NCBI GenBank assembly: GCA_033853925.1
Contig: JAWOLC010000016.1
Location: forward strand, 16,670 to 80,669
Source of the DNA: Candidatus Eiseniibacteriota bacterium
Lineage (GTDB): Bacteria > Eisenbacteria > RBG-16-71-46
DNA length: 64,000 nt
Reading direction: 5' to 3'
The first letter of the stretch is position 1, and every line of letters starts with the position of its first letter. The position numbers were made by a program, and so were the translations under genes. This document shows, piece by piece, positions 13,777 to 30,539 of this stretch. The notes under the pieces are model-generated. The model saw nothing but the letters and a program-made list of their open reading frames with translations, made no database searches and was not told the DNA's origin.

Positions 13777-13879
13777 GTCGCAGAGGCGGCCTCGACAGTG
13801 GACGGGCCCCGATCGTCCGACTATCCTCGGCCGACGCTGCGGCCGCCGCTCGCGAATCCGCCTGACCGTGGGAGGAACC

Positions 13880-14404
13880 GTGCTCGCCTACCTGTGGAGA
13901 TTCCTCCACCTCCTGTTCGCCTTCAGCTTCGTGGGCGCCTTGACCATCGCCGAGTGGAACGGCCGCGCCGCGCGGACCGCGAAGGACTGGAACCGGCGGG
14001 CGGCGCTGTGGGGCGTGGTGAGGGTGACCACGCAGGTGCTGGGCATCGGGGCGCTCGTCCTCGTCGGCATCCTCGGCAATCTGCTGGCGGTGGCCCTGGG
14101 GCTGCCCATGGGCGGCCTGTGGATGCGTGTCGTGAACGGGCTCTGGCTGGCCGGCCTTCTGGTCTACCTGTTGGCGGCTCTGCCCACGGCCGGCCGCTTG
14201 GTCGCCTTGTGCGAGACCGCGGCTCGGGAGGAGCGGGCGCCCGCCTCGCCGCCCTCCGGACCCCTTTCCCCCTCCTTCGCGGGCCCCGGAGCGGAGGCCA
14301 CGTACTCGGCGACGCTGGCGCGCTGGCGCCTGGCCAACGTGCTGCTCAGCATCTTCTTCGTGCTCATGCTGACCCTGATGGTCCTCCACCCCCGGCTCCC
14401 CTGA
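13880..14404 (+). CDS. DUF2269-like membrane protein
   Basis: FLHLLFA in TM1, four TM helices, C-terminal LMVLHP. GGAGG before GTG 13880 (13868 also possible). Confidence 0.65.
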   Translation: MLAYLWRFLHLLFAFSFVGALTIAEWNGRAARTAKDWNRRAALWGVVRVTTQVLGIGALVLVGILGNLLAVALGLPMGGLWMRVVNGLWLAGLLVYLLAALPTAGRLVALCETAAREERAPASPPSGPLSPSFAGPGAEATYSATLARWRLANVLLSIFFVLMLTLMVLHPRLP

Positions 14405-14631
14405 CGGCGACCCGGGGCCGCGAGGGCGCGTCCCGCTCGCGGCCGGCGGGTTCGCTCGCCGCGGCGGATGCAGCCCTTCTCGTTGGACTCCCGGCGCCTC
14501 GGATGCGAAACTCTGGCCGTGCCGCGGGAGACTCGCATCCCCGTGGGTCAGTGGTGGGTTCCCGATCTGTCGGGCCCAGGCCGGCTCCCCCGGCCCGGCC
14601 CTCGCCACCCTTCTCGATAGGGACGCGTACC

Positions 14632-17319
14632 ATGCCCAGCCATCGCCCCGCAGTCCTGCATGCGGCGCTCGTCCTCGCCCTGGCGACTTCGAGCGTACCC
14701 TTCGCGCGCGCAATCGGCGCCGCGGCCGCCGCCGCACCCACGCCCGCGACTCCGGCGCGGATCGGCTCGGCCGGAACCGTGCTTTCGCCGTTCGCGGGGG
14801 AGTTCAAGCGGCTGCAACGTCAGGCTCTCCTCGAGGGCGCCCAGCGCCGCATCGCGCGGGCTCGCGTCTTCGCCCAGCTCAGGCGCAACCATCCCGAGCT
14901 GGCGAAGGTCAGGCTCCGGGCCCGGCTCCCCAAGGACTGGAGCGAAGCCGGCGGGCCGCAGGGCGTCGGCGCGAATCGGAGCCCGATCCTGCGCGCCCCG
15001 GCTTCCACCCGCGCCAAGGCCGCCCTGGGACCCAACGTGATCGTGAACGACCGAAGCGAGGACGGCGGCCGCACGAACGTGGGGCAGGCGGAGCAGATGG
15101 TCGGGGTCTACGGCCCCAACGTGCTCATCGCCTTCAACGACGGGCTGGGCTTCGAGCTGGGCAGCGGCGTCTCGAGCACCCAGGGATACAGCTACTCCAC
15201 CGACGGAGGCCAGACCTACACGGACGGCGGGGTTCCTCCTCTGCTGTCCGGATGGGAGTGGACCAGCGACCCGGTCGTGACGGTGGACCCGAAGACCGGC
15301 GAATTCTGGTACTGCGCCCTGGTGGACATCCCCAACAACAACCAGAACGGGGTCGGCGTCGTGAAGGCCACCTTCGGCGGCACTCCGACGACCATCCAGT
15401 GGGGCACGCCCACGCTGGCCTGGGTCTTCCCCAACTCCTCGATCGCCGACAAGCCCTGGATGGTCGTGGACTCGCTGAGCGGTCGGCTCTACCTCAGCTA
15501 CACGGTCTTCAGCGGCTCGGGCTCCAGCGCGACCGACAACATCTACTTCCAGCGCTCCGCGCCCGGAGGCACGAGCTGGGAGGCGCCACAGACCATCTCC
15601 CAGGCCAGCGAGGCCGGCGCCGTGCAGGGCTCGCGCCCGGCGGTGGGGCCGGCGGGTGAGGTCTACGTGGTCTGGAACTCCATCGGCACGTCCGACGTGG
15701 ACTTCATGCGGATCACCCGCTCCCCGGCGGGCAGCCAGGGCCAGGCCGGCAGCTTCAGCACGCCCGTGAACGTGGCCGCGGAGGTCTCCAACTTCGGCAA
15801 CGGCGCGCCGGGCTTCAATCGCGGGATGGGCATCACCTTCCCCGGCATCGCCGTGGACCGCTCGAGCGGCTCGCATCGCGGCCGGGTCTACGTCTCGTGG
15901 AACGAATGCGTCGACTTCTTCACCGACAGCCTGGGCACCCTGGACACCCTCACCGAGGCCGAGCCCAACAACAACTTCGCCAGCGCCAACAGCATGACGA
16001 TCGGGCAGACGGTCCAGGGAGCCATCTCGGTCTCGAACGACATCGACCTGTACAAGTTCACCGGCACGGCGGGCGAGACGGTGATCCTCTACGCCGGATC
16101 GGTGGCCTCGACCTTGGACATGGGCCTGCGCCTGTTCTGCTCCGACACCACGACGCGCCTCGCGTATTCGGCCCTGGGCATGGGCTCGCCGGACATCGTC
16201 GTCTTCACCCTGCCCAGCGACGGCACCTACTACATGCGCTGCGACGGCTTTGCCGGGGGCACCGGGGGCACCACCGGGAGCTACACGGTCTTCACGGGCT
16301 TCCATCACACGCCGAACCCGGTGGACCGCTCGCGCGACCATCGCGACGCGTTCGTGGCCTGGTCCGACAACCCCACCAGCGCCGCGAGCTGGTCCGTGGC
16401 CCGCTCCAGCGACAGTCCGGCCGGCTTCGACGACTGGCTCCCCGAGGTGGCGGTGGCCGGGGACAACGCCAACCCGCTGGTGGGGAGCGGCAAGCCGTAC
16501 AGCCTCTGGTACGACTGGCGCGACTCGCCGCCCAGCGCCTGCGGCGGCGTCTCGAACGTGTACCTCGCGCGCTCGGACAACGGTGGGGGCAGCTGGACCA
16601 CCGTGGGCACGATCACGAACACGCAGACGTTCTGGAGCAGCGTCGCGAGCGACATCGCGCCCAATCAAGGCGACTACCTGTCCCTCTTCACGGACACGAC
16701 CGACCTCTACGCCTCGTGGGCGGACGGCCGGAACGGCGACCCCGACGTCTTCGCCAGCTACATGACCCTCGAGTCGACGGCGGCGACGCTGGCCCTCTAC
16801 AGCGTGAGCGCCACGGCCACGCAGGTGACCCTGACCTGGTACGCCAGCCCGGATGCCGGGGTGACCACGGCCACCGTCCAGAGGAGCAGCGACGGCGTGC
16901 TCTTCGACAACCTCGCCGACGTCGTCCCCGACGGGAGCGGCTACATCGTCTACATGGACACCACGGTGACGTCGGGCGGGCGCTACTACTACCGGCTCTC
17001 GGCGCTCGGCGGCACCCTGCTCACGCCGCCCGAGCTGGTGATCGTGCCGGAGAAGTCACTGGTCCTGCGCGGCGCGCAGCCCAATCCCGTGGACGAGAAC
17101 CGGCCTTGGTTCGTCTCGTTCGAGCTGCCCAACACCGCGGTGGCCAAGCTGGAGCTCTTCGACGTGGCGGGGCGGCGGGTCGCCGAGAGGGACGTCAGCG
17201 GGGTCGGCCCGCAGTCGGTCCAGCTGTCCGAGGGCGTGAAGCTCAAGCCCGGTCTCTACCTCATCCGTCTCACCCAGAACGGCGTCAGCCTCACCACCCG
17301 CGTGAGCGTGGTGCGGTGA
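14632..17319 (+). CDS. Secreted BNR/sialidase-like beta-propeller with inserted PPC-like domain, Ig/FN3-like domain and FlgD/T9SS-like CTD
   Basis: Signal peptide; Asp-box-like motifs (YSTDGGQTY, ARSDNGGGSW); EAEPNNN + DIDLYKF PPC-like module; CTD QPNP...FELP...LELFDVAGRRV...PGLYLIRL. Confidence 0.75.
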   Translation: MPSHRPAVLHAALVLALATSSVPFARAIGAAAAAAPTPATPARIGSAGTVLSPFAGEFKRLQRQALLEGAQRRIARARVFAQLRRNHPELAKVRLRARLPKDWSEAGGPQGVGANRSPILRAPASTRAKAALGPNVIVNDRSEDGGRTNVGQAEQMVGVYGPNVLIAFNDGLGFELGSGVSSTQGYSYSTDGGQTYTDGGVPPLLSGWEWTSDPVVTVDPKTGEFWYCALVDIPNNNQNGVGVVKATFGGTPTTIQWGTPTLAWVFPNSSIADKPWMVVDSLSGRLYLSYTVFSGSGSSATDNIYFQRSAPGGTSWEAPQTISQASEAGAVQGSRPAVGPAGEVYVVWNSIGTSDVDFMRITRSPAGSQGQAGSFSTPVNVAAEVSNFGNGAPGFNRGMGITFPGIAVDRSSGSHRGRVYVSWNECVDFFTDSLGTLDTLTEAEPNNNFASANSMTIGQTVQGAISVSNDIDLYKFTGTAGETVILYAGSVASTLDMGLRLFCSDTTTRLAYSALGMGSPDIVVFTLPSDGTYYMRCDGFAGGTGGTTGSYTVFTGFHHTPNPVDRSRDHRDAFVAWSDNPTSAASWSVARSSDSPAGFDDWLPEVAVAGDNANPLVGSGKPYSLWYDWRDSPPSACGGVSNVYLARSDNGGGSWTTVGTITNTQTFWSSVASDIAPNQGDYLSLFTDTTDLYASWADGRNGDPDVFASYMTLESTAATLALYSVSATATQVTLTWYASPDAGVTTATVQRSSDGVLFDNLADVVPDGSGYIVYMDTTVTSGGRYYYRLSALGGTLLTPPELVIVPEKSLVLRGAQPNPVDENRPWFVSFELPNTAVAKLELFDVAGRRVAERDVSGVGPQSVQLSEGVKLKPGLYLIRLTQNGVSLTTRVSVVR

Positions 17320-17394
17320 CATGGAGCGACCCCAGGTCGAGGCACTTGTTCTGGCCTTCTCGCGGCCACCCTTCGGGGTGGCCGCGGGACGTTG
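17315..17394 (-). repeat. IS1111-type right-end copy A (80 bp; inverted repeat of 18878-18957)
   Basis: 71 of 80 nt identical to the reverse complement of 18878-18957. Contains IR ATGGAGCGAC (17321-17330) and hairpin GCGGCCACCC-TTCG-GGGTGGCCGC-type stem. Confidence 0.9.
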
Positions 17395-17590
17395 GAGTGG
17401 ACGAGGAGGGCTCGACTCAGAGGGCAGCTTCGTGCTCGACTGTGGGCGTTCCTCCGGGGCTCCTCCCTGACGGACCTGGATTGGCTTCGACACCACCCAA
17501 CCTCCATCAGCAGGGCCCCGGTTGAACAGGCCCCTCAGTGAACAACGTGGTGAGACATCACACGTAGATTGGCGTCGTTCCATACTAGAC
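17315..17590 (-). mobile_element. Possible internally deleted (MITE-like) IS1111 derivative
   Basis: On the minus strand: IR variant ATGGAACGAC (17583-17574), a long stem-loop and GAGGAGCC as in the 24.0-kb left end, then right-end copy A. No ORF. Confidence 0.45.
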
Positions 17591-17602
17591 AGTAGGGAGC
17601 TC

Positions 17603-18652
17603 TTCCCGGGGCAGCCAGATCCGGTGGAGTGGCCGGAGGCCACGACGGTTGAGGCCATCCGGCGTCTGGCCCGCAAGCTCCAACGGGACGCGTCCGGGCC
17701 AGTCCGGTGCTGCTACGAGGCGGGTCCGACCGGCTACACCCTGCAGCGCCAGCTCCGGCTGGCGGGGATCTCCTGCACCGTGATCGCGCCCTCGCTCACG
17801 CCGGTGAAGCCGGGCAGCCGGATCAAGACCGACCGGCGCGATGCCCGCAAGCTGGCGGAGCTGTTTCGCGCCGGCCTGCTGACCGAGGTCCATCCGCCGA
17901 GTGAGCGGGACGAGGCCCTGCGGGACCTGTGTCGTTGCCGCGACGATGTGCGGGTGGACCTGCTGCGGGCGGGGCACCGGCTGAGCAGGTTCCTGCTCCG
18001 GCGTCACTACCTCTACCGGAACACGAAGCACCACTGGGGTACGCGCCGCTGGGCCTGGCTCGAGCAGTTGCGCTTCGACGACGCGCTGAGCCAGGCCACG
18101 TTCGACAGTTACCTGCTCGCGGTGCAGCAGCTTGAGGAACGGCAGCAGCAGCTCGACGCGCAGCTCGCCACCTTCGGCGCCGAGGAGCCGTACCGTGAAC
18201 CGGTCGCGTGGCTGCGCTGCTTCAAAGGCATCGACACCGTGACCGCGGTGTGCCTGGTGGCCGAGCTGCACGACTTCCGGCGCTTCCACTCGGCGCGCCA
18301 GCTGATGGCCTACGTCGGCCTGGTGCCGAGCGAGTGCTCGAGCGGCGAGCGCGAACGGCGGGGCTCGATCACCAAAGCGGGCAATCGACATGTGCGCCGG
18401 CTGCTGGTCGAGGCGGCGTGGCACCACCGCTTCCGCCCCGCGCTGAGCCTGCCGCTGCGGCGTCGGCGTGAAGGCCAGCCGGCGCGGGTACTGGCGATCG
18501 CCGATCGGGCGCAGGAACGGCTGTGCGCGCGCTACCGGCGCATGACCCTGCGCGGCACCAGCACCCCCAAGACCATCGTCGCCATGGCACGCGAGCTGAC
18601 TGGCTACCTCTGGGCGGTGCTGCATCCCGACGCCACCCTCACGCGAGCCTGA
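17603..18652 (+). pseudogene. IS110-family transposase, 5'-truncated
   Basis: CYEAGPTG, KTDRRDA, KGIDTVTA, YVGLVPSECSSG, ITKAGN, IVAMAREL. Lacks the N-terminal GLDxHK motif (first catalytic Asp). Homology to the 23.6-kb copy starts at FPGQ. Confidence 0.9.
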
Positions 18653-18954
18653 GCAGGAGGACCCGACCACTGGGCGAACAGGTGAAGGCCGGCACGATCT
18701 GGAGGACGCGCGACTCCGGTATGCGGTACGGCGGCTTGCCGCCCGAACCCGCGCTCCTAGAGAGCGGACCCTCCCGACGGATCACAGTCATGCGGCTCGG
18801 CCCGGGACGCCGGTGCAACCCGCGAATATCAGCGTGACTCGTCGTCGAAGCGCCCGGCCTTCCCTGTCGCCCTGTCACAACGCCGAGCGGCCACCCCGAA
18901 GGGTGGCCGCCAGGAGGTCAGAACAAGTGCCTTGACCTAGGGTCGCTCCATATC
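18653..18954 (+). ncRNA. Long non-coding IS1111-type right end, predicted bridge/seek RNA region
   Basis: About 300 nt non-coding after the transposase stop, with several stem-loops and the segment CAGTCATGCGG...CAACCCGCGAATATCAG. Ends in IR GTCGCTCCAT (18942-18951) with a TTGACC -35 box at 18932-18937. RNA status is inferred from IS1111 biology. Confidence 0.6.
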
Positions 18955-18957
18955 ACC
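18878..18957 (+). repeat. IS1111-type right-end copy B
   Basis: See copy A. Abuts the TGA of the convergent gene ending at 18953. Confidence 0.9.
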
Positions 18958-21460
18958 TAAGAACCACGAACTTCTGAGTCGCTGCCACGCCTCCAGCCTC
19001 AAGTCGGCAGAAGTAGAACCCCTCCCGCCACCCGCCAGCGCGGAGCCCGATGTTGTGAACCCCCGCGGTCAGCACGGAGTGATTGAGAAGCGATGCCACG
19101 CGACGCCCTTGAACATCATAGACTGCGAGGTTCACAGGCCCCGCCGCGGGGAGCGCGAACCGAATCGTGCCTTCCGAGTGAAGCGGATTGGGCGCGATGG
19201 GGGCCAGGGCAAGCCAAGTCGGAACCGGCTCCGGCCCGGGTGGCGTGCCGAACGTGATCGCGGCCAGCGTCGCGGCAGGGATGTCGCCGATCCGCTGGAA
19301 TCCTCCCCCAATGTACAGCGTGTTGCCGACCGGAAGGATCACCGAAGCTCCGGCGTGCGCGAAGCCCCACTCCAGATTGCTCAAGCCAGCATCCCAGGGG
19401 AGAATGGTCCCGGTCCTCAGATCGAGCGCGGCCAGGCCCTCCCGAGGCTCCCCGCCGATGACCCAGAAACCACCTCCGACGAACATGGTGTCTCCGACAA
19501 TCGCGATGGTGGACACGTTCGTGCCCAAGTTCGTGTCCGCGCTCCAATCCAGTGCCCCGCCGGTCGCTGCATCAAGTGCAGCGAGGTTCTGCCGCGGCTG
19601 GCCGCCAATCGTATTGAAACGACCTCCCACGAAGACCGTGTCGCCAGCAAGGGCCACGGTCGTGCACCAGTCGTCCGATTGCGGATTCCAGTCCAGGATC
19701 GCCCCACTCTTCCCGTCAACGGCCGCGATCCCCTTCCGCGTAAGTCCCCCGATGGTCCAGAAGAAGCCCGCCACATAGACCACGTCGCCCCTCACCGCCA
19801 AGCCGTACACGTCGCTCGCTGCGTTGGGGTTCCAACTGGTCAGCTCTCCCGTGTTCAAGTCGAAGGAGGCGAGGCGGCCCCGAGGCTGGTCGCTCATGGT
19901 GGTGAAATATCCGCCAACGTAGAGCGTGTCCCCGGTGACCGCGAGCGAGCCGACCACGCTGTTCGCCGTTGGATTCCATTCTGTCGCCCCGCCCGTAAGC
20001 GTATCGAGTGCGGCGAGGCCGTAGCGGGTCTGGCCCCCGATGAAGCTGAAGTAGCCCCCCACGTACACACGCCCGTGAGTCACGGCCAGCGCCCACGTCC
20101 CCAGCCCATCGGGGTGCGGGTCCCAGTCCTTCACCGCGCCCGTCGTCACATCGAGGGCCGCGAGCCCTTTCCGCTCCCGCCACTGATCGCCGATGCTGAA
20201 GAAATACCCACCCACGAAGACGGCGGCCCCAGCCACGCCCAGGGCAAAGACTGCGTCGGTTGACCGTGGATTCCACCGCGTGGCTAGACCGGTCGCGAGG
20301 CTCACCTCGGCACAGTATGGACGATCCTGGCCGCCCATCGCTGCGAACCATCCACCAAGAAAAGCGGTCGAATCATGCAGCGTCAGACACGTGACGGGCG
20401 AATCGCCAAGACTCGATGCGGGCGGGGCCGGGTTCCACAGCAGCACTTGGCCGGTTGCGAGATCGACTTGAGCCACGCCGGAACGGGCCTGCGCGCCGAT
20501 GGACGTGAAGTGCCCGACGACGTATACTGTGTTGCCCCTCAGGCTCATCGCCGCGACGTAGGGGTCGCCGTAGATCGTGTTGTCCAGTCCCGAGATTCCG
20601 GGGTTCCATGCGGTCGGGACTCCCGTCGCGATGCTCACGGCCGCAAGTCCACCACGCGATTGTGTCCCGACCTGCGTGAAGTCACCGCCGAGGTACATGG
20701 TGTCGCCGAGAGCCGCCAACGCCCGGACCGATCCGCGGCTTCCAGCGATGGAAACATCCGGATTCCAAGCTGCGGGCTGCCCAGTTGCGCTGTCCAGTTG
20801 AGCCACTCCGTAGCGTGTAATTGTTCCTACGGCGGTGAAGTCTCCCCCGATGTAGACGTTCCCTCGGTAGGGCAGTAGGGCGCGGACCTGGAGGTTCGGC
20901 TCGGGGTCCCAGCCCGTGGCTTGGCCGGTTCCAACGTCGAGCGCGGCGACGTAGCTGCGGGGTTGTCCGCCGATGTGGGTGAAGAACCCTCCCGCGTAGA
21001 GAGTCTCTCCACTCCGCGCCAGGACGAGAATCTCGCCGTCAGCGTCCGGGCTCCAGTCGGCTACGCGTCCACTCGCCAGGATGTGGGCGATGTTCGCTCG
21101 GGGGACGCCTCCGACGGCGACGAACGTCCCGCCAATGAACCAGCCTCCAGCGCCGTCCGGTACGACCGTCCTCACGACGCCGGTGACGCGAGGGAACGAC
21201 GGGAGCGGCTCGCCCGTCACTCGGTCCACGGGCACTCCGCCTCCGCTGTTCGGCCCGACGGCGTTGAAGTCGCCACCGACGTAGAGCGTGTTGCCCGAAC
21301 GCGCGATGGTGAAGACACTCCCGTCCGTCCCCCACAGGTTCTCGTCCACTCGCTGCGGCACGGCTTCGTTGGCACAGAGCAGGAGCGCGGCCACAGCCCA
21401 GGCACACCACGTCCGAGGTGCTCGGGCAATGCCCTCACGCCTCGTGGTGCGTGCCCGCAC
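18953..21460 (-). CDS. Secreted repeat protein (14 blades, probable double 7-bladed beta-propeller) with FlgD/T9SS-like CTD
   Basis: 14 repeats of consensus WxP...V.ALA..G..LYVGGxF..IGG..R..LAALD..TG. CTD APNP...FALP...VNLAVYDVQGRRVA...GFYFCRL. Start uncertain (GTG 21460; ORF open to 21517). Confidence 0.8.
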   Translation of the reverse strand: MRARTTRREGIARAPRTWCAWAVAALLLCANEAVPQRVDENLWGTDGSVFTIARSGNTLYVGGDFNAVGPNSGGGVPVDRVTGEPLPSFPRVTGVVRTVVPDGAGGWFIGGTFVAVGGVPRANIAHILASGRVADWSPDADGEILVLARSGETLYAGGFFTHIGGQPRSYVAALDVGTGQATGWDPEPNLQVRALLPYRGNVYIGGDFTAVGTITRYGVAQLDSATGQPAAWNPDVSIAGSRGSVRALAALGDTMYLGGDFTQVGTQSRGGLAAVSIATGVPTAWNPGISGLDNTIYGDPYVAAMSLRGNTVYVVGHFTSIGAQARSGVAQVDLATGQVLLWNPAPPASSLGDSPVTCLTLHDSTAFLGGWFAAMGGQDRPYCAEVSLATGLATRWNPRSTDAVFALGVAGAAVFVGGYFFSIGDQWRERKGLAALDVTTGAVKDWDPHPDGLGTWALAVTHGRVYVGGYFSFIGGQTRYGLAALDTLTGGATEWNPTANSVVGSLAVTGDTLYVGGYFTTMSDQPRGRLASFDLNTGELTSWNPNAASDVYGLAVRGDVVYVAGFFWTIGGLTRKGIAAVDGKSGAILDWNPQSDDWCTTVALAGDTVFVGGRFNTIGGQPRQNLAALDAATGGALDWSADTNLGTNVSTIAIVGDTMFVGGGFWVIGGEPREGLAALDLRTGTILPWDAGLSNLEWGFAHAGASVILPVGNTLYIGGGFQRIGDIPAATLAAITFGTPPGPEPVPTWLALAPIAPNPLHSEGTIRFALPAAGPVNLAVYDVQGRRVASLLNHSVLTAGVHNIGLRAGGWREGFYFCRLEAGGVAATQKFVVLR

Positions 21461-21476
21461 AACTGCTGGGACGTGT

Positions 21477-23584
21477 TCAGCGGACAAGCAGAACCCGGAG
21501 CGAACGTCGACCCTCAACCGTCGTCAGGCTCGTAAAGTAGAGGCCGCTCCTCACCGCACGGCCGAGCACGTCGTGTCCGTTCCACGCCAGATCGGAACGG
21601 CCCGACGGCAGGTCGCCATCCACGATGGTCTGCACGCGACGCCCGAGCACGTCGTACACCGCAAGGTGAACCCTCATGCGTCTCGGCAGTTCGATCCGGA
21701 GCGCAACGGTCGACCGCGCTGGACTGGCTCCCGCCAGCAACAGCTCCGGGCGCATCACGCTCACCGCCGTCGCGTCCACACCCGCCGCGCTGGGGCAGTC
21801 CATGCTGAACAAGTATGGTGACGTCGCCGGCCGCATCTGCGTGTAGCCGATGCCCGCGATGTCGTCGGTGTATGCGGCCAGGAACTCGATGTCGTTGGTG
21901 ATCTGGAGGTACTCGCTCGCGTGCCAATAGTAGAACCAGCCGGCCTGCACTGGCGGCACGAGGGTCCACAGCTTCTGCGTCCGGGCCCATCGCGCCCCCG
22001 ACGAGACGGTGTCCGTAGGGCTGTACGGATTCGACTCTGCCCAGATCGAGTCGTTGTTGACGGTGTTGAACAACCACCAGTTCCCGTTGCGATAGAAGGC
22101 GTGGGGCGACTCGACGACATACGCTGTGCCGTAGATCGGGTTGATCCAGGAATGATGCGTGTTCCAGAGCGGGAAGCTGTTGCCCCACGAGGTGAAGTCG
22201 CCATGCGATCTCGCCACACCCACGACCATCTCAGGCGTGTATTCCTGCGGGACCGTGGCGAAGTACACGAGCCAATCACCAGGTACATCCGGATCGGGCA
22301 TGACGAACGGATCGCGTAGCTGCACCTGCCCGCCATACGGACCGGCAGGGGTTGGATCAGCCCACGGAATGTTGCGCGTGCTGGGTGCCGTCGTAGCTTC
22401 GAGCACGCTGTCGCCCTGCGTCCAGTTGACGAGGTCGGTTGAAGTGGCGAGGCCGATCCGTTGGTTGTGGTTCTTGTCTACCCCCGTGTACAGCATGTAG
22501 TACGTGAGGCCCTTGAGGACGACGGTGGGCGCCCAAACGTGAAGGCTGTCGAATCGGCCCCCGCGGGTTCGGATCGCCATCGTGTCCTGCGCCTGGCTCC
22601 GGGGCCAGTCCCAGCCGATCAAGTCGTTCGAGACCTTGTGGCCGATGTTCTTCTCGGTCAACTCGGTGGTGATGCGCTGATTGTGGCGGATGTAGAACAG
22701 GTGGAACGTCCAGGAGCCCGCCGGTGTCCAGCCGCCCTCCACGAAGGCGAAGTCCTTCGGCTGGATCATGTAAGGGTCATTCGGATCGAGAATCTCCTCG
22801 AACCTGCGCTCGCAGCCGCCGGTGTCGGCGACCGCGAGATCAGGAGGCGGCGGATCAGCCTCCACGTCGGCGGTCGTGACCAGGTCGTTCGCGCCCTGAA
22901 CTTGAAGAACGGAAGCCGGCACGTGAGCGGCGAGCAAGGCGCTGGCCGAGATGGCCAAGTCGCTGACCGCCCCAATCGTGAGCGGCTGATTCCAGGAGCC
23001 GTCCGACGCGGCCAGAGTGACGGAGCGCGTTCCAGCAAGCCCGGAGCCTACCGCAGTGAGGAGATACTGAGTCGAGTGGTGGACCGTGGAGGTCCGCAGG
23101 ATGACCGGCTAGTAGTCGCCTTCCACCCCTTCATTGTATGTCACCTCGTTCGACTCGATCACCTGCGTGGTGTCGGCCGGGTTGAAGGCAACCACCTTGA
23201 GCTTGCCCCTGCTGCCGCCGACCAAGTCGAGCAGGTAGTAGGCGGTTGCGGCGGAGCCGCTTCCGGCCGAGCAGAAGTGGGCCCTGATCGCGTTGGCAGC
23301 ACTGTCGGCCCGGGTCAAGGGACCCCAGATCGAGTCCACCTTGGCGGTATCGGCGAGGCAGGCGAGAACCGAGTCGAGGGCGACGAACTGAATGCCGGAC
23401 GAATCAGCGGTCCAGCTCAGGACCCACGAGGACGGCAACGTCGCGGTGGAATCCGCCTGAACGAGAAGCGAGGCACGGATGTGAAGCTCAGAGCTGTCGA
23501 GCGATCGCTCCAATGCAGCTGGATGGCGGACGACCCTGTGGGAACGAGCAGCATGAGGGCGAGGAACCAATGAACGCGGCGCAT
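21477..23584 (-). pseudogene. Disrupted secreted GH32/GH43-like five-bladed beta-propeller protein with CTD
   Basis: ATG 23584 with GGAG RBS and signal peptide MRRVHWFLALMLLVPTGSSA. Frameshift near 23470-23490. In-frame TAG at 23109-23111. Frame then continues into 21477..22958 (PKDF, FHLFY, VWAP, YMLYTG, LRDP; CTD VYDVLGRRV). Confidence 0.75.
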
Positions 23585-23638
23585 CGAACATCTCCATGAC
23601 GAACGGATTCGACGGCGACCAGGATGGTACGCGGTCTG

Positions 23639-24104
23639 CTCCGCCAGCTTGCAGGCATCCCGGCGATCGGTCTTGATCCGGCTCCCAGGCTTCACCGGGG
23701 TCAGGGAGGGTGCGATCACGCTGCAGGAGACGCCAGCCAGTCGTAACTGGCGCTGCAGCGCATAGCCGGTCAGTCCGGCTTCGTAGCCGCACTGGACCGG
23801 CCCCACCGCCCCCCGCTGGAGCTTGCGGGCCAAGCGGCGGATGGCCTCGAGCGTCGGCACCTCCCGCCACTCCACGAGCTGGGCCTGCCCCGGGAAGAAC
23901 GCTGCCACCTTGATCGAGCTCTTGTGGGCATCCAGCCCCACCCAGGCGCTAGAGTGCTGACTCACGACCGGCTCCTCTCGTCTGCGGCTCTGGCGCCGCG
24001 AGGTGCTAACCCGCGATCGCGTGGCGGCCCGTCCGCCGACTGTCGGCCACTCTCGTGAGTGGCTCGACGCTACGACCGCGAGCCCGTCGCTCCATGTTGT
24101 CTAG
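23639..24104 (-). mobile_element. IS110/IS1111 left end plus 5' fragment of transposase
   Basis: IR GTCGCTCCATGT at 24086-24097; GAGGAG RBS; GTG 23965; VGLDAHK, GYEAG, KTDRRDA. Homology ends after KLAE at 23639. Confidence 0.88.
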
Positions 24105-24168
24105 CCCGGGGAGACGGGAGGCCGTCCGCCTCGGGGTTCGGGCCGGCAGACTCCGGTCGTCGAGATCT

Positions 24169-27100
24169 TCAGCGCAACAGTACGACCCGGCGGCTGATCG
24201 TCGCCCTCGGCGTCGAGAGGCGCACGAAATAGACCCCGGATCTCGCGCCCGAGCAGTCCCAGGCGATCTGGTTCGTCCCGGCGAGGAGGGACCCGCCCCC
24301 CAGGTCCGCGAGCCTCCGCCCGCTCAGGTCGTACACCCCGAGCTTCACGTCCGCCACGTCCGCCAGGCTCACGGTCAGCGGCACCGGCTGGCCGCGCGCG
24401 CTCACGATCGTGGGCACGCGCAGGTCGTCGGCGCCGGGCGGTGGCGCCGGCTGCGCGTGGCACGAGTCGAGATTGCAGATGCCCACCAGGGTGCACACCG
24501 GCTCGGAGACGAGGCCGCTCGCGTCGCGCACCGTGAGGCACACGTAGAACGCTGAGGTCTGGCGCGCCCCCGAGCCGGCGAGGAACCTGCCGGAGTAGGT
24601 CGGCCCGCAGGCTCCGCCGGGAACCCTCTCGCACCAGGAGAATTGATAGGGCGGCTTGCCTCCGGAGGCGGCGGCCCAGAACGTGTCGGGCGTGCTGGCG
24701 CAGCAGAGCAGCTCGGGCCCGCTGATGAAGGCTCGCGGTGTCTGCGCTCGACAGGAGTCCGGCGAGAAGATGCTCACGGCCTGGCAGACGGTGTCGGAGA
24801 CGAAGCCGTGGGCGTCCCGCAGGGAGAGGCAGACGAGGAACGTGGAGTCCCACCGCGCGGCGGAGCCGGTGAGGGTGCCGCCCGAGGAGGTCCAGCGGCA
24901 GCTTCCGCCCACCGGCTTCTCGCACCAGGAGAACTGGTACGGGGCCTTGCCTCCCCTGGCGCCCGCGTAGAACGTGTCCCGCTTGCTCGAGGTGCAGAGC
25001 TGGCTGGGCCCCATGATGAAGGGATGGGGCATCTGCGAATGGCAGGAGTCGCGGTTGCAGAACATCACCAGGCTGCTCAGGGTATCGGAGAGCACTCCAT
25101 CGGCGTCGCGCGCGGCGACGCAGAGGAAGAAGGAGGAATCCCGCCGGATCGCCGGTCCCGTGAGGAAGCTCCCGCCGGGCGCCAGCGTGTAGCTCCCGCC
25201 CACCGCCTGCTGGCCCCAGAAGAACTGGTAGGGCGGCTTCCCCACGGACCCCGAGGCCCAGAACGTGTCGGCGGCAGTCGTGCAGCAGAGCGATCCGGGG
25301 CCGCGGAGGCTCACCCGGGTCCTCCCATATGGGACCAGCACGGGCACGCGGATGGATTCGGTCTGCCTCATCCGGTCCATGACCTGGACGATGAGCGTGT
25401 GCGCGACGGTGTTGTGGCACTCCTCCTGCCACGGGAACTGGCCCAGCATCCCGGAGACCGACGACGACCACAGGTACGTATAGGGCGGCAAGCCCCCGGA
25501 GGGCGTGACCGTGTCGCGCACGCACCCGCCCCAGGCGGAGGTGAGGCTCGCCTGGGCGATGGACAGGACCATGGGCGGCACGTCCAGGGAGACCCACAGG
25601 CTGTCCCTGCCGAAGCGGCCGTGGCTGTCCGTGACCGTGCAGGCCACGAGGAATCGCGCGCTGTTCGAGCAGGCAGCCTGGATCGTGTTGGTGTCCCCCG
25701 GAATCGCGTACCAATCGCCCTGGTCTCCATAGGTCCACACGAGCTGCGACCAGGCGAAGTGGACCGCTCCCGTGGCGTGCGCCACGCTCGCCTGATACGT
25801 GCCCGGCTGGCCCAGGCCGAGCTTCACGGGACCCGTGATCGCGACTTGCAGCGAGAGTCCCACGATGGCGATTCCCCGGTGGGCGAAGACGCTGTCGATC
25901 TGGGAGAGGTGGGCGCCGGCCTGATGGTCGTAGTCGGCCTGCCAGATCGCGTCGCTGCCCATGGCGTAGCACGGGGTCGCCGGCAGATAGTAGAGGCTCT
26001 CGACGACCAGTCGATCCGCGACCTCGGGCAGGGTCTGGCGCAGATCCCAGAGCGCGCCGGACCAGATCATGCCCTTGCAGTACTGCCCGGCTCCCGACAC
26101 GCACTCCGCGTCGATCACGTCGTAGTTCGCGTAGTTGTACTGAGTCGGGTCCGTGTTCACGCAGCGGTAGATGCCGAGGACGGGCGCGTGCCCCTTGAAC
26201 ACGAAGTCGCCGATGCAGGGGTGGTTCGTCGAGGCGGCGCCGAAGAAGTCGGCGTAGCCCTCGTGCATGGCCAGCGGCTCCAGGGCCTTGCCGGCCAGGC
26301 CGCTCCCGTCGATGCCCAGCGAGACCAGGACGTAGTGGCCGCTCTCGTGACCGATGATGTCGGCGTCCTCCGCGCAGCAGCCCAGGCCGATCGCCTGCGT
26401 GAAGTAGGTGCCCGCCTCGGTCGTGAAGGCCAGGCCCATGCTCGTCGCCGGTTCGTGCACGTGCGCGGTCATGGGGGCGACGGGCAGCGTGTACCCCAGA
26501 GGCGCGAGGAAGGTCTCGACGAACTCGTTGGTGTGCCAGTAGGCGCTCACCTCGTCGAACGGGTTGGGATACGGGTTGATCGTGGTGCTGCACGGCTCGA
26601 AGTAGTACTGACCGTCGGGGCTGGAGACGCCCGGCGTCGTCTGGCTCACGACCCGGACGGAGCGCCCCTCGAGCCGCGAGACGTCGTCGCGCAAGTGGAC
26701 GAGGGTGGTGTCCAGCAGCCCGTGATCCGGATTCGGATTCGCCACCCAGCCGCGGCCGACGCCCGTGTACCCCTCGCCCAGCGCGAGGTTCGCCGTCTCG
26801 AGCACCGCCCCGCTGCGGGCATCCACCGTCACCCGCCACCAGTACGGTCGCGCGCTCGCCAGCAGAGTGACCACGTAGACGAGCGCCCCCCGACCTTCGC
26901 GCACGCGCACCGCCAGCTCCGTGGCCGCCCGCGCGCGCTCCGCCGTCGCCGGCGCCGCGGCGCGGGCCAGCTCCTCCGCGTGCGCGGCGGGAAACGCGGG
27001 TGTGGTCTCCGTCTCGGGCACGCGCACCGCGCCTCCGGCCAGCATGCGTAGGCGGCCCTGCCGGTCCACGCTCGCCATGTATTCGCCGTCCAGCACCGGG

Positions 27101-27465
27101 AGGCCGCGATAGAGCTGGCGCATGCGCAGGTGGTGCACGCCGCGACGCTCGCGCTCCTGCACCATCGCGAAGTCGTCCAGCCCGGCGCGCAGCCCGAACA
27201 AGCCGGCGTTGCGCGTGAAGAGGTCCTGCACTGCCCGGGCGTGCCCCGTCGTCCAGCCGGGCAGCGGCGCGCTCCCGCGACCGTGGATGACCTGCGGTGC
27301 GTCCGCGGGATCGTCCCAGCGCACGCGCCACTCGCCGGCCTCTCTCTGGGTGAAGGAGAGCCACTCGCGCGGGGATCGCGAGGGAAGCTCGGCGCTGCGG
27401 CCCACGCCGGCCCAAGCTGCCAGGACGTACAGCAGGAGCGCGGTCACGATCTGGGGCGGCCTCAT
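24169..27465 (-). CDS. Secreted thermolysin-like (M4/M36-type) zinc metalloprotease with Cys-rich Ig-like repeats and CTD
   Basis: Signal peptide; FTP/PepSY-like propeptide (LRMRQLYRGLPVLDG, VTVDARSGAVL); HESGH and HEGYADFF zinc motifs; GGxPPYxxxW repeats; CTD VYDLSGRRL. GGAGG RBS. Confidence 0.85.
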   Translation of the reverse strand: MRPPQIVTALLLYVLAAWAGVGRSAELPSRSPREWLSFTQREAGEWRVRWDDPADAPQVIHGRGSAPLPGWTTGHARAVQDLFTRNAGLFGLRAGLDDFAMVQERERRGVHHLRMRQLYRGLPVLDGEYMASVDRQGRLRMLAGGAVRVPETETTPAFPAAHAEELARAAAPATAERARAATELAVRVREGRGALVYVVTLLASARPYWWRVTVDARSGAVLETANLALGEGYTGVGRGWVANPNPDHGLLDTTLVHLRDDVSRLEGRSVRVVSQTTPGVSSPDGQYYFEPCSTTINPYPNPFDEVSAYWHTNEFVETFLAPLGYTLPVAPMTAHVHEPATSMGLAFTTEAGTYFTQAIGLGCCAEDADIIGHESGHYVLVSLGIDGSGLAGKALEPLAMHEGYADFFGAASTNHPCIGDFVFKGHAPVLGIYRCVNTDPTQYNYANYDVIDAECVSGAGQYCKGMIWSGALWDLRQTLPEVADRLVVESLYYLPATPCYAMGSDAIWQADYDHQAGAHLSQIDSVFAHRGIAIVGLSLQVAITGPVKLGLGQPGTYQASVAHATGAVHFAWSQLVWTYGDQGDWYAIPGDTNTIQAACSNSARFLVACTVTDSHGRFGRDSLWVSLDVPPMVLSIAQASLTSAWGGCVRDTVTPSGGLPPYTYLWSSSVSGMLGQFPWQEECHNTVAHTLIVQVMDRMRQTESIRVPVLVPYGRTRVSLRGPGSLCCTTAADTFWASGSVGKPPYQFFWGQQAVGGSYTLAPGGSFLTGPAIRRDSSFFLCVAARDADGVLSDTLSSLVMFCNRDSCHSQMPHPFIMGPSQLCTSSKRDTFYAGARGGKAPYQFSWCEKPVGGSCRWTSSGGTLTGSAARWDSTFLVCLSLRDAHGFVSDTVCQAVSIFSPDSCRAQTPRAFISGPELLCCASTPDTFWAAASGGKPPYQFSWCERVPGGACGPTYSGRFLAGSGARQTSAFYVCLTVRDASGLVSEPVCTLVGICNLDSCHAQPAPPPGADDLRVPTIVSARGQPVPLTVSLADVADVKLGVYDLSGRRLADLGGGSLLAGTNQIAWDCSGARSGVYFVRLSTPRATISRRVVLLR
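24430..25302 (-). repeat. Three tandem 291-bp (97-aa) coding repeats
   Basis: Units start GPGSLCC (25302), GPSQLC (25011) and GPELLCC (24720). Shared DTF.A...GK.PYQF.W and C...RD..G..S motifs. Confidence 0.85.
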
Positions 27466-27848
27466 TACGGTGCACCTCCGCAGTCGCGCCCGGCAACTGG
27501 AACGCCATTCTTCCACCAATCCGGACCCAGGGGAACGGGATATTTCGCGCGCCGCGGGCCGTCCGGCGGCCGCCGGGGGAGCCGCGGCGGGGAGGCAACC
27601 CCTGTGTCCAGCCGCTCGGGAAGGGCGGACCCCCCTGGGCCCGAGGGGACTCGAGGGGCGAAGGGCGACCAGCCGGGTCCCCAGTGCAGGATGCACGGCC
27701 ACCCCGATCCCGCGCGGGGCGGGGGAGGGGAATCCGGCGGCGAAGGTTCCGTCGAGGACTGGCTCCTCCCTTGCGAAGTTGGAGTAGAATTGGCAGTGGA
27801 CCGATCGTGCTGCTCTGCCAACCCATCCCCTCCCTGGAGGCAACTCTC

Positions 27849-30539
27849 ATGTCCCCGATCCGCCCGGCGCCATCCTGCCCGGCGCGACGCGTGCTGCTCG
27901 TCGCGACCCTTGCCCTGCTCACGGCCCTTCCGGCCTGGGCTCAGGAGGGCGGGACCGGACCGGGGAGCGGCTTGAGCCCCGCCGAGCGCGAGACCCAGCG
28001 CCGCACCCTCAAGCAGCTCCAGCGGGATCTGCTCATGCAGGGCGCGCGTGGGCGCATGGCCGCCGCGCGGGCGCGGCAGCGCGAGCTGAGGAAGCACGGG
28101 GCCACGCGCGGGCAGGGCCTGCACGCGCGCAAGGCGGAGGTTTCGGACGAGGGCGGGAAGCCCCTGGACTTCGACCGGCGGGTGGTGATGGCCTCGGCCG
28201 AGAAGGCGGTGGTCGCGCCGACCAACGTGCGCGTCAACAACCCGACGGGCGACGCCAGCTCCGCGGGCCAGGCCGAGGAGAGCGTGGCCGCCCTGGGCAA
28301 CTACGTGCTCATCGCCTGGAACGACGGGCAGGGATTCACCTTCAATCCCTACCACGACCTCCAGACGGCCGGTTACTCGGTGGACGGCGGCGCGTCCTTC
28401 ACCCAGGTCACGATTCCGCACCCGTCCGCCTACCCGAACTGGTGGTGGTCGAGCGATCCGATCGTGACCGTGGACGAGAAGCGGGGCAAGTTCTACTACT
28501 GCGGCATGGGCCAGGACGTGCCCGGGCCGACCGCCCCCTCGGTCAGCGCCCTCGCGGTGGTGCCCGCCACCTTCTCGGGCTCCACCTTCACCTGGGGCAC
28601 GCCCTCCATCGTGGCCACCGTCCCCGCCGCGACGAGCTTCCTCGACAAGCCCTGGTGCGTCGCCGACTCCGTCACGGGGAACGTCTACGTCACGACCACC
28701 ACCTTCGACGCCTCGGACCACATCACCTTCTATCGCTCGACGAACCAGGCCGTCACCTGGTCGCCGGGCGTGCAGATCTCCTCGGTCGCGGAGAACGGCA
28801 CGGTCCAGGGGTCGCGCCCGGTCGTCGGCCCCGGGGGCGAGATCTACGTCGTGTGGTCGGCCATCGGCCCCTTCGACGCCGATTATCTGAATCTGCGCAA
28901 GGCGCCGAACCCCGGCTCCGGCTCGCCGTCCTGGGGCACGGAGGTCACGGTGGACAGCCTCTACGCGCAGTTCGGCACGGGCGCCCCCGGCTTCAACCGC
29001 GAGCGCGGCATCACCTTCCCCTCGATCGCCGTGGACCGCACCAAGGGCGCGAATCGCGGCCGCGTCTACGTCGCCTGGAACGAGACCTGGGACATCATCT
29101 CGGCCCCGGTGCCGCTCAACTCCGGCAAGGCCGAGGTCGAGCCGAACGGGGATCCCACCACCGCCACGCCCTTCACGCCGGGGCAGACCCTGCGCGGCTC
29201 CAGCTCCTCGACCTCGGACCTCGACTACTGGAGCTTCGCCTTGAGCGCCGGCCAGAGCATCATCGTCTGGGCGGACTCGCTGCCCCCCAGCGCCACCTAC
29301 ACCCTGCGCCTCTTCGCCCCCAGCCCCGACGCGGGGCAGCGCCTGTGCTACGGGGGCGACATCACCGCCGGGTCCAGCGTCACCCAGACCTATTACATGT
29401 TCACGGCCCCGGCCGCGGGGACCTATTACCTCCGGTACGCTCCCGTCTTCGGAAACTCGCCGATCGGCTCGTACCGGGTGAGGACCGCGTACGGCGGCGG
29501 ACCCGGCGGCTACCGGGCGCGCGACCAGCGCGACGCGTTCGTCAAGTACTCGGACAACGGCACGAGCTGGAACGGACCCCTTCGGCTGAACGACGACGGG
29601 ATCGGCTTCGACGACTTCCTGCCCGAGGTGATCGTTGGCGCGGACGGCTGCCCCTACGCCACCTGGTTCGACTTCCGCGACGACACCTACGGCTCGCGCG
29701 CGAACCAGTACGCCTCCCGTTCCCAGGATGGCGGCGCGACCTGGCAGGCGAACGCGCGCTTCACCAGCGCCACGAGCAACTTCACCACCTCGCTGAGCAA
29801 CATCGCGCCCAACCAGGGGGACTACAGCCACCTCTACGGCGACCCGCGCTACGTCCGGCCCACCTGGGCCGACGGTCGCGGGGCGAACGTGGACGTCTGG
29901 GCCACCGCCGTCGACACCTGGTTCGCCCTGGCGAGCTGCCCGCCCGCGCAGAGCGCGAACCCGAGGGACGTCCTCAACCTCACCTGGACGGTGAACAATC
30001 AGAACCCGCTCTTCCCGAGCGACTACGGCTACACGCTCACCAGCGCCCGCGCCTGGCCCCTGCCCCCGCCCGGAACGCTCCCGGGCGTGGCGGCCGCCGG
30101 CTCCGGCGACCTGAACCTCGCGGTGAGCGTGCCCGACTCCGTGGCCCTGGGCACGAACACTCTGACCTTGACGGTGACGAACGCCAGGGGCACGCGGGTC
30201 CAGCAGTGCGACGTGACGGTGAACCTGGTCACGACCCTGCTCGCGGTGGAGCCCACGGGGTACGGGCTCTCCTTCTCGCCCGCGCGTCCCAACCCGGCCT
30301 CGCGCGAGGCGCGCCTCGACTTCACCCTGCCGGGCCCGGGCCGGGTGCGCCTGGCGATCTTCGGGGTGCAGGGCGAGATCGTGCGCACGCTGGTGGACGG
30401 CGAGCGGCCGGCCGGCTCGAACAGCGTGGCCTGGGACGGACGCGACGACTCGGGCCGCGCCGTGGCGACCGGCGCCTACTTCGCCCGCCTCGAGGCCGCC
30501 GGCCGCACTCTCACCCGGCGCATCGTCTGGATGAGGTGA
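27849..30539 (+). CDS. Secreted BNR/sialidase-like beta-propeller with PPC-like insert and FlgD-like CTD (paralog of 14632..17319)
   Basis: Shared blocks GQAE, AWNDG, SDP.VTVD, DKPW, VQGSRP.VGP, APGFNR, ITFP.IAVD, RGRVYV.WNE, E.EPN, RD.RDAFV, LPEV, NQGDY, WADGR. CTD RPNP...FGVQGEIVR...WDGRD. Confidence 0.78.
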   Translation: MSPIRPAPSCPARRVLLVATLALLTALPAWAQEGGTGPGSGLSPAERETQRRTLKQLQRDLLMQGARGRMAAARARQRELRKHGATRGQGLHARKAEVSDEGGKPLDFDRRVVMASAEKAVVAPTNVRVNNPTGDASSAGQAEESVAALGNYVLIAWNDGQGFTFNPYHDLQTAGYSVDGGASFTQVTIPHPSAYPNWWWSSDPIVTVDEKRGKFYYCGMGQDVPGPTAPSVSALAVVPATFSGSTFTWGTPSIVATVPAATSFLDKPWCVADSVTGNVYVTTTTFDASDHITFYRSTNQAVTWSPGVQISSVAENGTVQGSRPVVGPGGEIYVVWSAIGPFDADYLNLRKAPNPGSGSPSWGTEVTVDSLYAQFGTGAPGFNRERGITFPSIAVDRTKGANRGRVYVAWNETWDIISAPVPLNSGKAEVEPNGDPTTATPFTPGQTLRGSSSSTSDLDYWSFALSAGQSIIVWADSLPPSATYTLRLFAPSPDAGQRLCYGGDITAGSSVTQTYYMFTAPAAGTYYLRYAPVFGNSPIGSYRVRTAYGGGPGGYRARDQRDAFVKYSDNGTSWNGPLRLNDDGIGFDDFLPEVIVGADGCPYATWFDFRDDTYGSRANQYASRSQDGGATWQANARFTSATSNFTTSLSNIAPNQGDYSHLYGDPRYVRPTWADGRGANVDVWATAVDTWFALASCPPAQSANPRDVLNLTWTVNNQNPLFPSDYGYTLTSARAWPLPPPGTLPGVAAAGSGDLNLAVSVPDSVALGTNTLTLTVTNARGTRVQQCDVTVNLVTTLLAVEPTGYGLSFSPARPNPASREARLDFTLPGPGRVRLAIFGVQGEIVRTLVDGERPAGSNSVAWDGRDDSGRAVATGAYFARLEAAGRTLTRRIVWMR

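Follow-up and report, generated by a model that had tools for sequence, protein, structure and literature searches.

What are the two closely similar sequences that close two converging genes in a genome of Candidatus Eisenbacteria, and how did both come to lie exactly against a stop codon? The locus belongs to a stretch of 64,000 nucleotides (contig JAWOLC010000016.1, assembly GCA_033853925.1), which we call the window, and the two sequences, arm L and arm R, face each other in inverted orientation at 17315-17394 and 18878-18957. We consider it very likely that the arms are traces of an IS1111-type insertion sequence (IS) of Candidatus Eisenbacteria that entered, in two separate insertions, the stop codons of converging genes for proteins with a C-terminal domain (CTD) of the T9SS (type IX secretion system) type. 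These genes are the following:

13798-17319, plus strand: gene 1, a secreted protein with a PPC domain and a T9SS type-A CTD; stop codon TGA at 17317-17319
18953-21517, minus strand: gene 2, a beta-propeller protein with a T9SS type-A CTD; stop codon TGA at 18955-18953

The initial annotation had described the arms as 80-bp inverted copies with 71 of 80 positions identical, each against the TGA of a converging CTD gene, and we confirmed this description. A repeat search returned the 80 nt as 89% complementary (71/80 by count), and BLAST of one arm against the other gave E=1e-23. Read from gene 1, the junction is GTGCGG-TGA-CATGGAGCGAC; read from gene 2, on the minus strand, it is CTTAGG-TGA-TATGGAGCGAC. 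The TIGR04183 profile scored 32.2 bits on gene 1 and 36.9 bits on gene 2 (cut-off 23), with a T9SS type-A CTD in both, and PF18962 (Por_Secre_tail) covered profile positions 3-75 of 75 in gene 2. A sorting role of this domain in Eisenbacteria is assumed here from the name of the family. The FlgD_ig profile also matched neighbouring genes.

The identity of the arms was settled by comparison with four full-length relatives (G004, G002, G010 and G020), which, like all genomes compared in this work, come from metagenome-assembled genomes (MAGs). These relatives align to window positions 17601-18952 at 71-82% identity, so that arm R forms one unbroken sequence with the transposase gene and its downstream non-coding region; the arm is therefore the right end of the element. 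Their left ends read (TC)AGACAG-TATGGAACGACC and are unlike the arm, while the 12-bp repeat pairs with the arm tip. Their right ends consist of a conserved non-coding region of ~180 nt, the hairpin GCGGCCACCCCGAAGGGTGGCCGC, the motif TTGAC and GGGTCGTTCCATA-CTA. In full copies only a few bases lie outside each subterminal repeat, the left end being (A)GACAG-TATGGAACGACC and the right end GGTCGTTCCATA-CT(A). The arm has the corresponding layout of conserved hairpin, TTGAC, 12-bp subterminal repeat GGTCGYTCCATR and 2-nt tail, and TTGAC is kept 8 nt ahead of the right repeat across arms. Judged from these alignments, we read both 80-bp copies as right ends of an IS1111-family element, and not as the two ends of one element. 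The earlier identification of the arms as IS1111-type right ends was thus borne out by full-length relatives with distinct left ends.

The remaining features agree with this family. The transposase is of the DEDD type and 372 aa long when intact, and the GLVPSECSSG of the window open reading frame (ORF) fits the C-terminal motif GL-P----S(t)G of IS1111 (PMC11187229). The gene is intact only in the G010 copy; those of G004, G002 and G020 are frameshifted. From the transposase stop at 18652 to the end of the element at 18954 there are ~300 nt of non-coding sequence, compared with ~130 nt upstream of the gene in full copies. Insertion occurs in a single orientation, with the right end against a stop codon at 43 sites and no direct repeat at the ends. 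By every testable feature the element is thus to be classed with the IS1111 family, and it would work as seekRNA and bridge-RNA elements do, integrating in one orientation, with its right end facing the gene and without target duplication.

An IS110-family ORF between arms that are 89% complementary might also suggest that the whole 1643-bp stretch is a single insertion sequence with 80-bp terminal inverted repeats. We regard this as close to untenable. It is already refuted by the four full-length relatives, in which the left end is unrelated to the arm; in addition, what comes after arm L is an IS481 fragment and an older right-end tip, with no left end, and the first 22 transposase codons are missing. 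The stretch is composed as follows:

17318-17400, minus strand: solo right end (arm L), with the tail TC (minus strand), subterminal repeat at 17320-17331 and hairpin at 17362-17385
17409-17562, minus strand: IS481-family fragment, with its terminal repeat tip at 17562, 5' untranslated region and first ~14 codons, the start codon being lost
17574-17587, plus strand: tip of an older right end with a CT tail, GTCGTTCCATA-CT-A, forming the left flank of the present IS
17588-17600, plus strand: left-end remnant of the present IS (copy A), GACAG followed by TAGGGAGC, a degraded left subterminal repeat
17600-18652, plus strand: IS110/IS1111-family transposase gene without its 5' end, equivalent to the intact G010 protein from residue 23 to residue 372, at 85% aa identity
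18681-18858, plus strand: downstream non-coding region, a predicted seekRNA/bridge RNA with two hairpins with internal loops
18878-18954, plus strand: right end of copy A (arm R), with hairpin at 18887-18910, TTGACC at 18932-18937, repeat GGTCGCTCCATA at 18941-18952 and tail TC at 18953-18954

The two occupied stop codons represent a general pattern of the lineage. All 19 arms found in 13 related genomes carry TCA or CTA after the repeat tip and a CTD signature at a fixed distance in the flank. A pattern scan that was blind to the flank, run with TTGACNNNGGGTCGTTCCATA over the GTDB representative genomes, returned 55 loci. Among these were 33 ends of the Eisenbacteria type (one from a Gemmatimonadales MAG), all 33 of which close an open frame, and 32 of the frames end in WDGRD..G..V..GVYF.RL.......R.V.L[RKEDH] at the stop. 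At the exception, G010:C52, the closed gene has no more of a CTD than its first half; from the left flank, the host gene already had a TGA at the same point. When pooled and de-duplicated, the data comprise 43 distinct sites, all of them at ORF stop codons; a full CTD tail is present in 42 of these ORFs. In the window's own genome, the only one for which whole-genome statistics were computed, an iterated hidden Markov model (HMM) search found 76 CTD ORFs among ~2,700 gene ends (~2.8%). With so small a share, chance association with CTD ends is excluded (~1e-63 by a binomial estimate). The targeting of CTD stop codons, which the initial annotation had suggested and for which it had proposed an enrichment test, is therefore well founded. 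The 76 CTD genes stop with TGA (46), TAG (25) or TAA (5), and in 51 of them the last residue is Arg, for which CGC is the commonest codon.

These ends arrived by insertion and not by duplication of gene ends: G022 has right ends that are identical to one another although the CTD tails next to them are unrelated, as does G010, and arms are 75-90% alike whereas the adjoining CTD coding DNA is barely alignable. Moreover, four species of the genus (G004, G003, G001 and G005) have gene 1 orthologues, all of which lack the arm, ending in ..CGG TAG ACC.., ..CGC TAG ATC.., ..CGA TGA CCC.. and ..CCC TAG CCC.., respectively. We take these armless orthologues, which supply the comparison with empty alleles that had been proposed earlier, to be empty sites. 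The same observations bear on whether the arm might be a native element of CTD genes, similar to a repetitive extragenic palindromic (REP) sequence or a terminator, beside which the IS merely lands. Solo arms without a transposase are indeed common, and GCGGCC-type hairpins also occur behind armless CTD genes. We nevertheless judge a native origin highly improbable. Besides the armless orthologues and the excess similarity of arms over coding DNA, the tip of the arm and the left-end repeat are inverted partners, every full copy has the arm in unbroken continuity with the conserved RNA region, the 2-nt tail adjoining the gene covaries with a motif inside the RNA, and the inner ends of solo arms are ragged.

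We also searched the window's own assembly (3.79 Mb, 195 contigs, GC 72.5%) with the 80-mer by BLAST, as had been suggested, and found no third copy. The flanks had therefore to be tabulated in relatives instead. A relaxed search of the same genome gave at most one or two degenerate relics, for example behind a CTD gene at C45:20229. At C45 ~20229 the CTD gene is followed by a degraded arm-like TGA CCGGGGACGCCC..GCGGCCAC, and at C110 ~33317 there is a GTGGCCACCCCGTCGGGTGGCC hairpin; both are probably older relics that BLAST missed. Two fragments make up the entire transposase content of this genome, with zero intact copies. The description of CTD stop codons as a multi-copy harbour thus fits the lineage, with its 43 sites, but not this genome, in which a dead element occupies two places.

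A predicted empty target in the window gave a similarly divided result:

27684-30539, plus strand: CTD gene ending in AGG TGA, without an arm; an unoccupied site

The site is unoccupied, as about 74 CTD stops are, but fits the guides of copy A (described below) poorly, with 4/6 matches in the right flank and TC, not CT, as the left dinucleotide. The gene is the last of five clustered CTD genes at 13798-30539, whose catalytic types are unrelated and which encode a PPC-domain protein, a beta-propeller protein, a GH43-like protein, an M36 fungalysin-like protein with an SprB repeat and a second PPC-domain protein.

How the stop codon survives the insertion can be read from the junctions. In seven full copies with both flanks known, TC or CT stands right before A-GACAG on the left, and CT-A or TC-A stands at the right end ahead of the last sense codon. 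The simplest reading is that the target would be ..TC^A^xxx or ..CT^A^xxx (^ marks the edge of the core), which is T^GA or T^AG in the sense of the gene, with a shared core of one base. For these copies, the stop changes from TGA to TAG (G004, G002, G010, G020), from TAG to TGA (L053, L087) or from TGA to TGA (L082). In the window, the crossover bases are T17317 for gene 1 and A18955, the T of the stop of gene 2; the bases GA at 17318-17319 and TC at 18953-18954 are borne by the IS. The GG ahead of both TGAs is part of Arg codons, CGG and AGG, that belong to the genes. The register is T^GA within the stop, and not on GGTGA as first proposed.

The tails at the 43 CTD sites are TC and CT only, both of which form a stop. 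After the repeat of wider relatives we observed TTG, CTC, TCG, ACA, CGA, CCA, GCA and CCG. In the proposed mechanism, crossover would occur at the T of the stop, and the tail of the element (AG or GA in gene sense) would remake TAG or TGA, so that the exact C-terminus of the protein would be kept and the hairpin set directly behind the gene. Export depends on the outermost C-terminal residues of T9SS CTDs. A tail that formed no stop would extend the protein by ~30 residues.

Next, we considered the non-coding region as the source of target choice. RNAalifold on 13 copies gave an outer stem that encloses two hairpins with internal loops; 12 of the 44 pairs are compensatory. In minimum free energy the region is no better than shuffles (z = +1.75), so the structure rests on covariation, and no Rfam family matched the region at E-values up to 1. 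Long seekRNAs of IS1111 likewise have two hairpins with internal loops (PMC11187229). Between CGCGAC and RUGCG, the first loop has on its 5' strand a hexamer that is antisense to the core A and the right flank. The reverse complement of the hexamer compares with the flank as follows:

G002: AGCGCA, flank AGCGCA, 6/6
L087: ACTTCA, flank ACTTCA, 6/6
G028: AGCGAT, flank AGCGAT, 6/6
G033: AGTGTAC, flank AGTGTAG, 6/7
Nannocystales: AGCTAGC, flank AGCTAGA/G, 6/7
G020, G011 and L082: 5/6
Window copy A, L053 and L089: 4/6
G004 and G010:C52: 3/6

The base after the hexamer predicts the base left of the core in 9/10 copies. The 3' strand of the same loop reads NNN-YY-A-GAGAG/GACAG, that is, left-flank dinucleotide, core and start of the left end, and the dinucleotide of the flank equals that of the guide in 9/9 copies across three states (TC, CT, TT). 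In the second loop, CACAGUC/CACGGUC and AAUA-NN-A-G correspond to the element's own left and right ends; the motif AUA-NN-A equals the right-end tail in 12/12 copies, again in three states (CT, TC, GC). The GC tail is that of the G033 copy, which lies at an IS3-like terminal repeat and not at a gene end. The guide-like segments of copy A are the following:

18715-18721, plus strand: TCCGGT(A), antisense of the core and right target flank
18754-18764, plus strand: CTCCT-A-GAGAG, sense of the left flank, core and start of the left end
18783-18790, plus strand: CACAGTCA
18825-18834, plus strand: AATATCAGCG, sense of the right-end tip and tail

An AGGTGA at 18680-18685 was also considered as a guide segment and is probably coincidental; other copies have CGGATGAAGG there, and the position falls outside the covarying loops.

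In three segments the downstream RNA covaries with the right-end tail, the left-flank dinucleotide and the target's last two codons, respectively, from which we infer that the target would be chosen through a seekRNA or bridge RNA. A segment of 6-7 nt in the first loop would be antisense to the crossover base and the last two codons, the same loop would also specify the two other bases of the stop codon, and the second loop would read the element's own ends. The commonest target in gene sense is ..TG CGC T^GA, which is Leu/Val-Arg-stop, the consensus CTD ending, and further hexamers suit the endings -Leu-Lys, -Leu-Asp, -Leu-His and -x-Arg(CGG). With hexamers for several CTD endings, the guides have diversified while the lineage stays on CTD tails.

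Relatives with other hexamers occupy other targets, namely AGCTAG sites in Nannocystales and delta-proteobacterial MAGs and the IS3-like terminal repeat in G033. In the latter (L008/L070, G033:C317), a relative of 69% identity with the tail GC and the hexamer GUACACU lies against TGTAGAGGGCGAGG.., the end of an IS3-like element with an orfA-like RRRFPAAEKLRILR downstream; this copy is a natural retargeting to the terminal repeat of another mobile element. Eight loci from Nannocystales, delta-proteobacterial and Thermoanaerobaculia MAGs (L050, L073, L077, L059, L062, L066, L074 and L079) have the same right-end tip and sit at ..TCA^GCTAG.. sites, mostly not gene ends, with GCUAGC or CUAACA as hexamer. 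The 21-nt right-end tip is kept across at least 8 phylum-level groups, including one Thermoplasmatota MAG. L087, from the Gemmatimonadales MAG DASSUE01, is a full copy with its 6/6 guide match on the stop of a CTD-tailed gene (..KKLILLK at the stop); its presence in another phylum reflects a binning error or else the spread of the CTD-targeting lineage by horizontal transfer.

Several observations weigh against the account given so far. Some concern the guide, which is too permissive for the restriction observed. The sequence TGCGCTGA occurs 48 times in the window's own genome; it closes 17 putative genes, only 5 of them with a CTD, and if one mismatch is tolerated it meets 169 gene ends there, 19 of them CTD. 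A guide match of ~8 nt thus predicts at best ~30% CTD sites, against the 42-43 of 43 observed, and several real sites match the right-flank guide at only 3-4 of 6 positions. A search for extra complementarity between the RNA and the CTD, in 100-120 nt of each copy's own CTD flank, found none, giving scattered 9-10-mers at inconsistent positions. Others concern the material: the element is known from MAG sequences alone, with frameshifts in most copies, the assembly is the one source for the nested junctions at 17395-17600, and the hairpin of the arm has no U tract, with a terminator consensus scan calling neither arm.

In a logo of the flanks, hardly anything stands out except the stop codon and the T at the second position of hydrophobic codons. 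Two possibilities could account for the excess restriction: selection that purges nearly all other insertions, through operon polarity or harm to non-redundant genes, or a further determinant. A broader proposal would be that a lineage of IS1111 has become a specialist for stop codons in a single sorting-domain gene family, restricted beyond its ~8-nt guide by such an extra determinant or by unusually strong selective filtering, with a stop regenerated at each insertion, as the other kind of stop in five of the seven copies whose two flanks are known, and open to re-targeting by sister variants, and the hairpin end retained as the new 3' end of the gene after decay. We put this forward tentatively, as somewhat more doubtful than probable. 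In the window, copy A, which is guided by CU-A and tailed by TC, sits against an older CT-tailed tip.

The hairpin itself is conserved. Over 19 arms, the main hairpin GCGGCCACC/GGTGGCCGC was paired in 96% of cells, with compensatory variants in the distant G010, L049 and L052. The AGGTCA/TGACCT stem, for which the initial annotation had claimed pairing kept through G-U, was paired in 49% of cells and is not conserved. As to the proposed terminator-like hairpin, a conserved hairpin is indeed placed beside the gene, but the missing U tract and the negative terminator scan do not favour the label, and a terminator-like role would be an inference. A sigma-70 consensus scan also called neither arm.

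Solo arms are frequent, and their inner ends are ragged. This would fit deletion relics that keep the stop and 3' end of the gene. The alternative that they are an independently mobile module, moved in trans, was suggested by ISPpu9, an IS110-family element of Pseudomonas putida with downstream RNA modules (ssr9) that are bounded by repeated boxes, form circles on their own and occur as solo copies (PMC12288879). Several of our solo arms start within ~10-25 nt of the hairpin, as such a module might. Their inner boundary has no box resembling the left end, however, and its position varies, some arms keeping 50-170 nt more or an internally deleted transposase (G010:C139, G005:C178). We therefore consider separate mobility unlikely; compared with the modules of ISPpu9, the solo arms with their ragged inner sides look like deletion relics.

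The region between the arms of the window records several such events. The inner boundary of arm L is ragged, at ~17395-17408. The IS481 fragment is the terminal ~155 nt of an element: window positions 17401-17567 are 76-80% identical to multi-copy sequences of relatives, and its counterpart in G004 runs into an ORF with 285.7 bits to NF033577 (cut-off 224). This IS481-family element is multi-copy across the family (L013 being the copy at G004:430.1 kb) and often lies at contig ends in G022, G009, G017, G021 and G034. In the window, it appears to have inserted at CTAG within an older IS1111-type right end. Positions 17574-17600 read GTCGTTCCATA-CT-A-GACAG-TAGGGAGC, a foreign right-end tip attached to a degraded left end. 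For this stretch we rejected a junction, circular or tandem, of one element, as the tip variants differ (GTTCC with a CT tail, and GCTCC with a TC tail). No junction of this kind was found in 102 other genomes of the order, so that the stack of old tip and new left end is a single example.

The rest of the left end of copy A and codons 1-22 are deleted. The enclosing ORF, 17522-18652, matches PF02371, and PF01548 from profile position 30 only. NF033542 gives 215 bits from profile position 31 (cut-off 140), compared with 237 bits over positions 1-339 for the intact G010 copy. The missing 22 residues carry WVGLDxHK, the motif of the first catalytic Asp. A TTG-started ORF at 17522 with a complete but diverged N-terminus was rejected, since homology begins at residue 23 and the upstream DNA is derived from IS481. 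A second fragment lies further along the window:

23638-24102, minus strand: IS copy B, with an intact left end and the first ~115 transposase codons, then truncated; core A at 24102, GACAA, left repeat CATGGAGCGAC at 24096-24086

Copy B carries the catalytic motif as WVGLDAHK and shares 82% identity with copy A across 263 nt; on its outer side the flank, ..GGGCT^A, lies 66 nt from the TGA of the CTD gene at 24169-27843. No copy of the element in the window is still mobile.

A plausible history of the locus may be assembled from these remains. The stop of gene 2 would have held a CT-tailed element, of which the tip at 17574-17587 survives, cut by IS481 near CTAG. The TC-tailed copy A would then have entered the rebuilt T^AG, as its guide CUCCU-A expects ..CT^A, turning the stop into TGA. 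Later deletions would have taken the left end and first 22 codons of copy A and most of the IS481 element. Arm L would be a solo right end at the stop of gene 1, possibly the partner of the left end at 24102.

If arm L and that left end are partners, they would bound a single 6.8-kb insertion in the TAG of gene 1, either an IS with DNA added internally later or a cargo bounded by IS ends, to which we give an even chance. The cargo version, with three secreted-protein genes and a nested copy A, is compatible with the explanation of the arms as separate right-end insertions. Arm L and the left end of copy B share the exact variant ACATGGAGCGAC ((C)ATGGAGCGAC), whereas arm R has TATGGAGCGAC. Joining the end of gene 1 to the flank of that left end gives CGG TAG CCCGGGG.., a hairpin and the converging CTD stop at 24169, which resembles orthologous ends such as TAG CCCGG (G005) and TGA CCCGGGG (G004), and GC is 62-68% at 18.6-24.0 kb compared with 69-77% outside. 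The match to the orthologous flanks extends over only 7-8 nt, however, the interior has at least two unrelated breakpoints (17395-17408 and 23638) and thus was no clean unit when last rearranged, and no second copy of the unit was found in the own assembly or the searched relatives. The lower-GC block at 18600-24000 contains gene 2, a GH43-like CTD gene (21477-22958), an ORF of 158 aa with a signal peptide that matched no family (23109-23585), together with the IS fragments; the block may be foreign DNA or cargo.

Natural targets of IS110 and IS1111 elements are the main guide to how programmable recombinases choose sites and avoid harm. The known targets are repeats and other mobile elements, and the end of a coding family as landing pad is a compact answer to the safe-harbour problem. 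With at least 8 different hexamers and graded mismatches, these natural pairs of guide and target could calibrate the tolerance of IS1111 guides, and the gap between guide specificity and the observed CTD exclusivity poses a concrete question. For annotation, solo arms explain a recurring conserved 3' element of 75-90 nt after Eisenbacteria CTD genes.

A full-text literature search turned up no account of a target of this kind, nor any mention of Eisenbacteria insertion sequences. Work on IS1111 elements of the IS4321/IS5075 type reportedly goes back to Partridge and Hall (2003), and the bridge RNA of IS621 is said to have been described by Durrant et al. (2024) and Hiraizumi et al. (2024). 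With the IS1111 elements known to use a seekRNA (ISEc11, ISPa11, ISKpn4 and IS4321/IS5075; Siddiquee et al. 2024, PMC11187229), the Eisenbacteria element shares a DEDD transposase that bears the GL-P----SG motif, subterminal inverted repeats of 12 bp flanked by a few extra outer bases, a downstream non-coding region with two looped hairpins, oriented insertion without target duplication, a top-strand match placed 5' of the bottom-strand match, and natural retargeting through changes of the putative guide. The targets of those elements are repeated non-coding or mobile-element sequences (REP, attC, terminal repeats of Tn21), whereas here they are the stop and last codons of a paralogous coding family; only here is the stop rebuilt by the tail, and the transposase has 372 aa compared with 330-350. 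With the bridge-RNA elements of the IS110 family (IS621; PMC13626964) it would share a two-loop guide for target and donor, a short crossover core and handshake-like guides that span the product junctions. It differs from IS621 in having the RNA downstream and not upstream, in its subterminal repeats and in an apparent core of the single base A (T in gene sense) instead of CT.

Other mobile elements also use host genes as landmarks. IS900, IS901 and IS902 of the IS110 family insert in one orientation at a host translation signal, in the gap that separates ribosome-binding site and start codon in unrelated genes, whereas the Eisenbacteria element lies in the stop codon of one gene family. Tn7 chooses attTn7, a single-copy site, through TnsD, which recognises the 3' coding end of glmS, and lands downstream of the stop; integrative elements rebuild the 3' end of a tRNA gene. 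Common to Tn7, these integrative elements and the Eisenbacteria element is the use of a conserved gene end as a harmless site that leaves the product intact. Tn7 relies on a protein reader, whereas the Eisenbacteria element would be guided by RNA, addresses a family of many sites and crosses over inside the stop. Compared with the described members of IS1111, what is new is the class of target, the crossover inside a stop codon and the tail that rebuilds it.

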